DNA of 64,000 nucleotides, from NCBI GenBank assembly GCA_964016885.1, contig OZ024740.1:248930001-248994000 (forward strand). The letters are read 5' to 3'. The DNA comes from Eledone cirrhosa. Taxonomy: Eukaryota. Within the stretch, counting starts at the first letter, position 1. Each line of letters begins with the position of its first letter. This document shows, in pieces, positions 25,978 through 26,606 of this stretch. The position numbers and the translations under genes were made by a program. Below the pieces are notes generated by a model. That model saw only the letters and a program-made list of their open reading frames with translations, was not told the origin of the DNA and made no database searches.

Positions 25978-26606
25978 CAATTAAGTTAAAAGTGTACATC
26001 CACATATGTATATTGAAATACTAGTATGCATATAAATACACACACGTATACATATGTACATGTACCGAGCCTTTCACTGGACACTTTACTGTGAGTGTTC
26101 AGCTAGTCTGTATGTAAACAAACAGACAAAACCGGTTTTTAGAGTCATACTGGTTTTCAAGGAAACACCTTTCCTCTATTCTCCAGAGAGCCAGACAGGA
26201 ATATTGGACTAGTTTCGATGTTATTACATCTCATCAGCAATATATACCCATCCACCGGCCTCTCTAGAGAATCGTAAAAGCACATATCGTTATATGCTTT
26301 TTCTATGAAAATTAGTAGTGGGCAGACTAATTTGCATAGAGCGTGAGTACGTACCGGTTCAGCGGAAACGATAAAAACAAATAACGAAACAAAATTAAAT
26401 TTCGTTTCGTTTGTAACTCACTTTTGTATGACTGACGCTTAAACAATTAAGTTAAAAGTGTACATCCACATATGTATACTGAAATACTAGTATGCATATA
26501 AATACACACACGTATACATATGTACATGTACCGAGCCTTTCACTGGACACTTTACTGTGAGTGTTCAGCTAGTCTGTATGTAAACAAACAGACAAAACCG
26601 GTTTTT
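25978..26606 (-). mobile_element. Retrozyme-like family H1, ~1.35 copies of a 466-bp monomer
   Basis: Reverse complement of 12060-13035 with scattered substitutions; period 466 (25978 vs 26444). Confidence 0.9.
26200..26243 (-). ncRNA. Type I hammerhead ribozyme (H1 copy 3)
   Basis: Minus strand: atattg-CTGATGA-gatgtaataacatc-GAAA-ctag-TC-caatatt; core and stems II/III identical to copies 1 and 2 despite divergence elsewhere. Confidence 0.92.

Follow-up and report, generated by a model that had tools for sequence, protein, structure and literature searches.

A hammerhead retrozyme of Eledone cirrhosa with 3' ends paired at two fixed sites, probably mobilised by a Penelope-like protein

We describe a non-coding hammerhead retrozyme of Eledone cirrhosa that is probably mobilised in trans by the reverse transcriptase (RT)/GIY-YIG protein of a Penelope-like element (PLE), itself probably of Neptune type, through twin priming at two sites of the retrozyme RNA, T1 and T2. 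We put the probability of this reading at roughly 0.7. Two copies lie in a 64,000-nt stretch of contig OZ024740.1 (positions 248,930,001 to 248,994,000; hereafter the window), and are called the 26-kb copy and the 12-kb copy.

Two insertions in the window and their family

The features of the 26-kb copy and its immediate surroundings were as follows.

25978..26606, minus strand: retrozyme insertion of subfamily A, 1.35 units of a 466-bp period
26200..26243, minus strand: minimal type I hammerhead motif as read from the sequence, the sole hammerhead of this insertion
26371..26444, minus strand: internal copy of the 73-nt T1-T2 "tail", holding a hairpin (T1 at 26444, T2 at 26371)
25929..25977, no strand: (TA)/(TATG) microsatellite at the 3' (T1) junction
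26607..26686, no strand: (TA)n at the 5' junction
26687..27062, no strand: head-to-head pair of termini of E2, an autonomous, putatively Neptune-type PLE; right arm with a 33-nt tail

The insertion consists of monomer positions 303-466 followed by 1-466, and 162/163 positions matched at a lag of 466. It is single-armed with its 3' end at T1, and an inverted 5'-truncated arm was not evident; an 8-nt T2 arm overlapping position 303 could be hidden at the 5' junction, where direct TA microhomology fits equally well. The hammerhead comprises stem I (ATATTG/CAATAT), the core CUGAUGA, stem II (GATGT/ACATC) and GAAA, with a 2-bp stem III within the palindrome ACTAGT, and its predicted cut falls after GUC, between 26207 and 26206. 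Since there is one motif and helix III is of the dimer type (PMC4209133), excision of a monomer in cis is unlikely; the locus probably cannot perform it, while the 12-kb locus probably could.

The E2 pair is a separate insertion in the same TA tract. A short palindrome centred on TGATCA marks the start of both its arms, and locus L290 has a similar fold-back. The whole 26-kb locus, including its flanks and E2, recurs in inverted orientation about 0.8 Mb away (L002/L132, C1:248.158-248.162 Mb), where the E2 left arm has 31 nt that are absent from the window; this duplicate is either a segmental duplication or an uncollapsed haplotype. The duplicate aside, the nearest relatives of the monomer in the similarity search were 96-98% identical to it, and the 26-kb locus is probably an ordinary, dead-end copy.

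The second insertion has the following features.

12055..13035, plus strand: retrozyme insertion of the young subfamily B, period 469, 3' end at T1
12304-12347 and 12773-12816, plus strand: its two hammerheads
11985..12048, minus strand: its short inverted 5' arm, with a non-standard end about 22 nt before T1

In this copy 511/513 positions matched at a lag of 469, and its monomer had many relatives at 99-100% in the similarity search. The monomers of the two copies differed in 43/472 aligned columns (38 events), and the 44-nt hammerhead was identical in both, including stem I (26200-26243 vs 12773-12816). The first-pass annotation of this DNA had likewise reported many differences around an unchanged core and unchanged stems II/III. 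It was also right that both insertions end at the same base: they terminate in ...TTAACTTAATTG, the common G end, and continue into (TA)n. The distance from the predicted cut to that end, annotated as about 226 nt, is indeed 226 nt in the 12-kb copy but 229 nt in the 26-kb copy. The two loci are independent, as annotated; they differ in subfamily, strand and flanks, and a single DNA-level duplication with shared flanks does not describe them. The unchanged ribozyme of this pair (0/44 vs 43/417, Fisher p=0.011) is only modestly significant. The identical run is 54 nt, a run of at least 56 nt somewhere has a chance probability of 0.25, and a 49-nt identical run occurs elsewhere.

Two other repeats were seen in the window. 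A minus-strand LINE-type reverse transcriptase-like fragment, identified by eye, lies at 11200-11762 and is truncated at the TA tract preceding the 12-kb insertion. A 112-bp tandem pair lies within an (ATG)n-ended repeat at 63551-63892, and the same repeat family adjoins the 5' end of a retrozyme in L270.

Genome-wide (3.0 Gb), we counted 1,463 exact 31-nt ribozyme cores (control 0), 10,628 matches to the 22-nt tail motif with at most one mismatch (control 0) and 40,588 relaxed hammerhead cores (control 8). The monomer fold is far stronger than that of shuffles (z=-9.95). No ORF of at least 250 aa was present within the element, which has no LTRs, its ends adjoining (TA)n directly. An Rfam scan of the window gave 0 matches at the gathering threshold, which minimal hammerheads can escape. 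The family fits the non-LTR animal retrozymes as these are presented in PMC7229834. The mapped set counts 94 elements, which occupy 92 regions after merging; they come from two similarity searches and from 35 core-search loci (all 35 among the first 100 matches listed), and both kinds of sample are biased to long, intact copies.

The 3' ends and their pairing

Among 159 closed 3' ends, 77 lay at T1 (-4 to +5), 72 at T2 (+69 to +73), which is 73 nt beyond T1, and 10 elsewhere. T1 comprises sub-sites with 30 ends at -1, 21 at 0/+1 and 22 at +4/+5. Because the G end accounts for 21/159 of the family's 3' ends, the G end common to the two window copies is only one of three T1 sub-sites. The histogram of 3' termini that had been proposed as a check thus gave two clusters and not a random spread. 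The annotated single priming site inside the RNA was partly right: 149/159 ends are fixed, but there are two sites instead of a single one, and the T1 ends are spread over about 9 nt. Its TA targets were borne out, as 131/149 T1/T2 ends run into (TA)n. Genome-wide there were 2,422 T2 junctions (control 140) and 2,128 matches to the T1 junction pattern (control 82), a figure that contains double counts on one strand and leaves out the +4 class. Family C, about 66% identical, has its ends at the homologues of T1 and T2, which in this family are separated by 59 nt; inspection by eye of the matches listed gave at least 10 loci of this family with a T1+T2 pair.

Head-to-head arm pairs were present in 66/94 elements. 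With the DNA-level duplicates L093 and L002 and the complex locus L100 left out, 63 two-armed elements were compared, and 56 of them paired one T1 end with one T2 end. The other seven were one T2+T2 pair (L050) and elements with one non-standard end. L050 (C2:116.99 Mb) has mirror-image flanks and is likely a DNA-level inverted duplication or an assembly artefact. Junction lists compiled independently of the ribozyme over the first 118 Mb of C1 gave 48/49 T1+T2 pairs, no T2+T2 pair and a single T1+T1 pair, which was confirmed at L242. In 17 loci picked by the tail motif and not by the ribozyme, 9/11 adjacent pairs were T1+T2 by eye; one of the remaining two leaves the fetched stretch and the other has an odd end. 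Of forty junction loci that appeared unpaired, most proved by eye to be T1+T2 pairs in which one end lay at +4 or the second arm was very short, and three of the 40 had no family A match.

The same pairing was found in other families of this genome. The E2 terminus, which is that of an autonomous RT/GIY-YIG element, follows the rule of one T1 and one T2 in 14/15 pairs (33-nt tail), and so do the two TA-inserted families F (tail about 80 nt) and G (about 86 nt), with 23/24 pairs in one family and 12/12 in the other. Examples of F and G are found at L204:7085-7440, L264 and L266.

RNA template, ribozyme and candidate helper

The 5' ends were distributed uniformly over the monomer (n=152, p=0.67). 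The proposed histogram of 5' termini therefore agrees with the annotation that 5' ends differ between copies: they are random. Ends at the cleavage site were rejected as a class (2/152 vs 3.6 expected), and a pile-up of 5' ends near T1 was not significant (14 vs 11.7, p=0.28). The predicted cleavage site was crossed by 134/152 arms, and 104/152 were longer than one monomer. Both arms exceeded one monomer in 21/63 elements overall and in 6/21 of the core-motif sample, in samples that favour long copies. Because 134/152 arms run past the cut site, the template was a multimer or a circle, as had been annotated. This excludes cleaved linear monomers as the template and fits an uncleaved multimer as well as a circle.

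At the centres of 56 elements, 31 junctions had a 1-8 nt overlap, 2 were blunt and 23 had 1-26 extra nt. Informative boundary duplications of at least 10 nt surrounded the whole two-armed unit in 22/63 elements (shuffled mean 8.6, maximum 12); the clearest boundary duplications were 9-16 nt. Since such duplications enclose both arms, the two likely come in together in a single event. A phase test for both arms starting on one tail copy was null (11 vs 14 loci, 6 ties, p=0.69).

The ribozyme varies among subfamilies, in stem II (GATGT/ACATC or GTTGT/ACAAC), loop (AATA or AACA), core position 7 (U or C) and cut triplet (GUC, GUU or GUA). All of these are changes that hammerheads tolerate. The ribozyme that had been called invariant from the two window copies is thus not so across the family. 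In an alignment of 7 subfamily representatives, 98.6% of cells pair and 8/20 helix pairs changed on both sides, in rows that are related and from which the structure was itself drawn, so that counts from shuffles of this alignment do not amount to probabilities. The proposed search for compensatory changes thus had a positive outcome, and the covarying helices lie in the hammerhead and the tail; among them is a long-range helix with its start in the tail. The tail helices comprise GTCATAC/GTATGAC and an inner hairpin. The comparison of substitution rates between the ribozyme and the rest of the monomer was mixed: the ribozyme was more conserved only for the A-B pair (p=0.011), it was not against the nearer D subfamilies (p=0.59-0.76), and family C gave no clear excess (p=0.058). 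Selection on the hammerhead structure, which had also been proposed, is likely in view of the compensatory changes and the intact core, and not of invariance. Hammerheads of other kinds were also seen. A Neptune-type family (L197, L200 and L211) has a minimal hammerhead downstream of its ORF with the helix III palindrome AGTACT and a shorter cut-to-end distance, and further hammerhead families occur in L144, L146, L151, L200, L201 and L204.

An ORF with RT plus GIY-YIG is absent from the retrozyme, and such ORFs exist elsewhere in the genome; the GIY-YIG search scored 150 of 10,595 candidates. In the E2-type element a CxxxxCxxC motif, as described in PMC8557442, precedes the endonuclease, which suggests assignment to the Neptune or Nematis clade. 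Neither retrozyme-like sequence nor a pLTR homologue was found by blastn in 38 GIY-YIG and 25 E2 loci, some of them overlapping, and tblastn gave no such partner beside the hammerheads of the family in the loci covered, 19 distant-family loci among them. Since no retrozyme-like autonomous PLE was present among the loci examined, the assignment of the partner rests on chimeras. In L086/L262, a retrozyme T2 arm and the 3' half of an ORF of the E2 family are connected by 40 nt of retrozyme, and the E2-family arm ends at the tail-less site of E2, which is its T1. L264 and L266 each combine a retrozyme T1 arm with a tailed (T2) end from family F or G. One chimera breaks the rule by joining the retrozyme T2 to the T2 of E2 (L290), and another is ambiguous (L263). 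These chimeras point to common machinery, and they leave the E2 family as the best candidate helper.

Mechanism, alternatives and relation to known elements

Taken together, these findings can be ordered as follows. On a multimeric or circular RNA that has not been cleaved, the PLE protein would bind a folded domain surrounding the tail, and it would cut both strands of a (TA)n target with a stagger of about 10-15 nt. Of the two DNA 3' ends, one would then prime at T1 and its counterpart at T2, each through a TA overlap of only 1-3 nt, and each cDNA would grow to a random length, in many cases beyond one unit. Microhomology would link the two cDNA ends, each of which would serve as template for the other, and the product would be a head-to-head insertion that carries the tail at one of its sides. 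The 26-kb copy and other single-armed copies would be those in which the second primer had hardly been extended, if at all. The ribozyme is likely selected for processing multimers to circles and not for setting either end. The same-site pairs of L242 (T1+T1) and L050 (T2+T2) and the chimera L290 run counter to this explanation. So do the null phase test, a tail beyond the published length, the in vitro findings of PMC11167929 on start sites and ribozyme cleavage, and the ordinary conservation of the ribozyme against the D subfamilies. A stronger version, which we consider less likely than not, would make PLE integration an obligately asymmetric double priming: a protein dimer would assign T1 to one DNA end and T2 to its partner, even across RNA molecules or families, and the cDNAs would template each other's second strand. 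The retrozyme arrays would then be direct rolling copies of ribozyme-made RNA circles by the Neptune RT, with the E2 family as helper.

We weighed three other explanations. In one, the PLE primes only once; the cDNA folds back and copies itself into the inverted arm, and resolution by the endonuclease sets the second end. This is akin to the self-priming idea of PMC3846280, and PMC8557442 ascribes the tail to endonuclease resolution. It also agrees with the similarity of arms within a locus, which fell within the closest 5% of cross-locus comparisons in 38/49 cases; this similarity could partly be gene conversion. A few centres are near-palindromic (5/56 within 30 nt), yet this is below the chance expectation of 7.3. 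Moreover, 14/56 elements are too long in both directions for copy-back, and the arms of the chimeras come from different RNA families. Fold-back was rejected as the main route to the inverted arm on the non-palindromic centres and these lengths, and we consider the single-priming explanation as a whole unlikely. Twin priming by a LINE is very improbable in our judgement. The retrozyme would then ride, as SINEs do, on an APE-type LINE/RTE with TA repeats as targets, and its arms would be the product of ordinary L1-style twin priming. L1 twin priming gives a head-to-head geometry with microhomology that the arms resemble, LINE-like RT fragments occur within the window, and some retrozyme copies adjoin (CAT)n tails. 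Nevertheless, the retrozyme itself lacks a poly(A) or simple-repeat tail, both of its ends are internal and fixed, and the 5' end of the T2 arm adjoins T1 in just 6/56 elements (2.5 expected). The two-site rule is, in addition, common to a GIY-YIG PLE of the same genome.

The remaining explanation accepts that the fixed ends are PLE-made and attributes the multi-unit arms mainly to unequal crossover after insertion, which would make a circular or long multimeric template unnecessary. DNA amplification has been proposed for retrozyme arrays (bioRxiv 10.64898/2026.07.22.740005), and DNA-level duplicates of whole loci do occur (L001/L002 and L092/L093). Long arrays of 14 to >18 kb (L114/L115 at C1:95.62 Mb, L181/L182 and L129) start at a clean T1 or T2, and some contain higher-order repeats of 5-8 units: L129 has two rounds of five units, and L114 (>18 kb) has mosaic repeats. 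These repeats fit either later DNA amplification or a multimeric template copied twice. Unequal crossover requires a prior tandem, yet 134/152 arms span the cut site, the usual arm has 1-2 units and a random 5' end, and both arms exceed a monomer in a third of the two-armed elements. We therefore regard crossover as an improbable general source of the arms; DNA amplification is probably confined to the largest arrays.

The element class and the PLE tail signature are each already known separately. The non-LTR animal retrozymes of Cervera and de la Pena 2020 (PMC7229834) are alike in having a type I hammerhead, no ORF, a highly structured monomer and short AT-rich tandem units that range from about one unit to large arrays. 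The monomer here is larger (466-469 vs about 225-390 nt), and fixed termini, inverted arms and TA targeting are not described for those retrozymes in the available text of that report. Circles and cleavage were demonstrated there, whereas the present retrozyme is known from sequence alone. Li et al. (bioRxiv 10.64898/2026.07.22.740005) also concluded that retrozymes depend on PLEs, as their non-autonomous derivatives. Their basis was co-occurrence and pLTR homology in vertebrates, with arrays taken as local amplification, while ours is an integration footprint. By their criterion for an active element (at least two consecutive hammerheads), the 26-kb locus has one hammerhead and the 12-kb locus two. 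The minimal PLE hammerheads of Cervera and de la Pena 2014 (PMC4209133) share the 2-bp helix III within a palindrome and the predicted need for a dimer, and that study also put forward circles to explain reverse transcription beyond one unit; the 26-kb locus differs in having one copy of the motif only.

Among endonuclease-bearing (EN+) PLEs, namely Poseidon PAc (Frangieh 2024, PMC11167929), Naiad/Neptune/Chlamys (Craig 2021, PMC8557442) and the Adineta Penelopes (PMC3846280), several features recur in the retrozyme: a one-end tail from two start sites, an inverted 5'-truncated copy, short target-site duplications and AT-rich or (TA)n targets. The one-end tail with an inverted copy is known from PMC8557442 and PMC3846280. 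PMC11167929 places RT starts at two internal sites, which delimit the tail, and shows cutting and extension of both strands in vitro; in bulk the two strands did not differ in start site, and the in vitro reaction could do without ribozyme cleavage. Non-autonomous head-to-tail PLE derivatives are also known (MRC1). The retrozyme differs from these PLEs in having no ORF, a tail of 59-73 nt against the published 30-40 nt, and arms both of which may be multi-unit. It differs further in the near-strict T1+T2 pairing counted per insertion, chimeric arms included. A retrozyme with this footprint, longer tail, per-insertion T1+T2 rule and chimeras was not found in print in the literature covered, which included few subscription papers. 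Nor did that literature yield work on head-to-head arms of retrozymes, on twin priming by PLEs or on this family among octopus hammerhead ribozymes.

The origin of the tandem and inverted structures of PLEs was named an open problem in PMC8557442, and the mechanism by which animal retrozymes are mobilised was left open in bioRxiv 10.64898/2026.07.22.740005. The present family offers thousands of integration footprints on an ORF-free RNA, and its own evidence names a candidate helper, the E2 family. It gives a sharp prediction, one end per site per insertion, which is testable in the existing in vitro PLE system. The family would thus tie retrozymes to PLE chemistry by mechanism, not by phylogeny.
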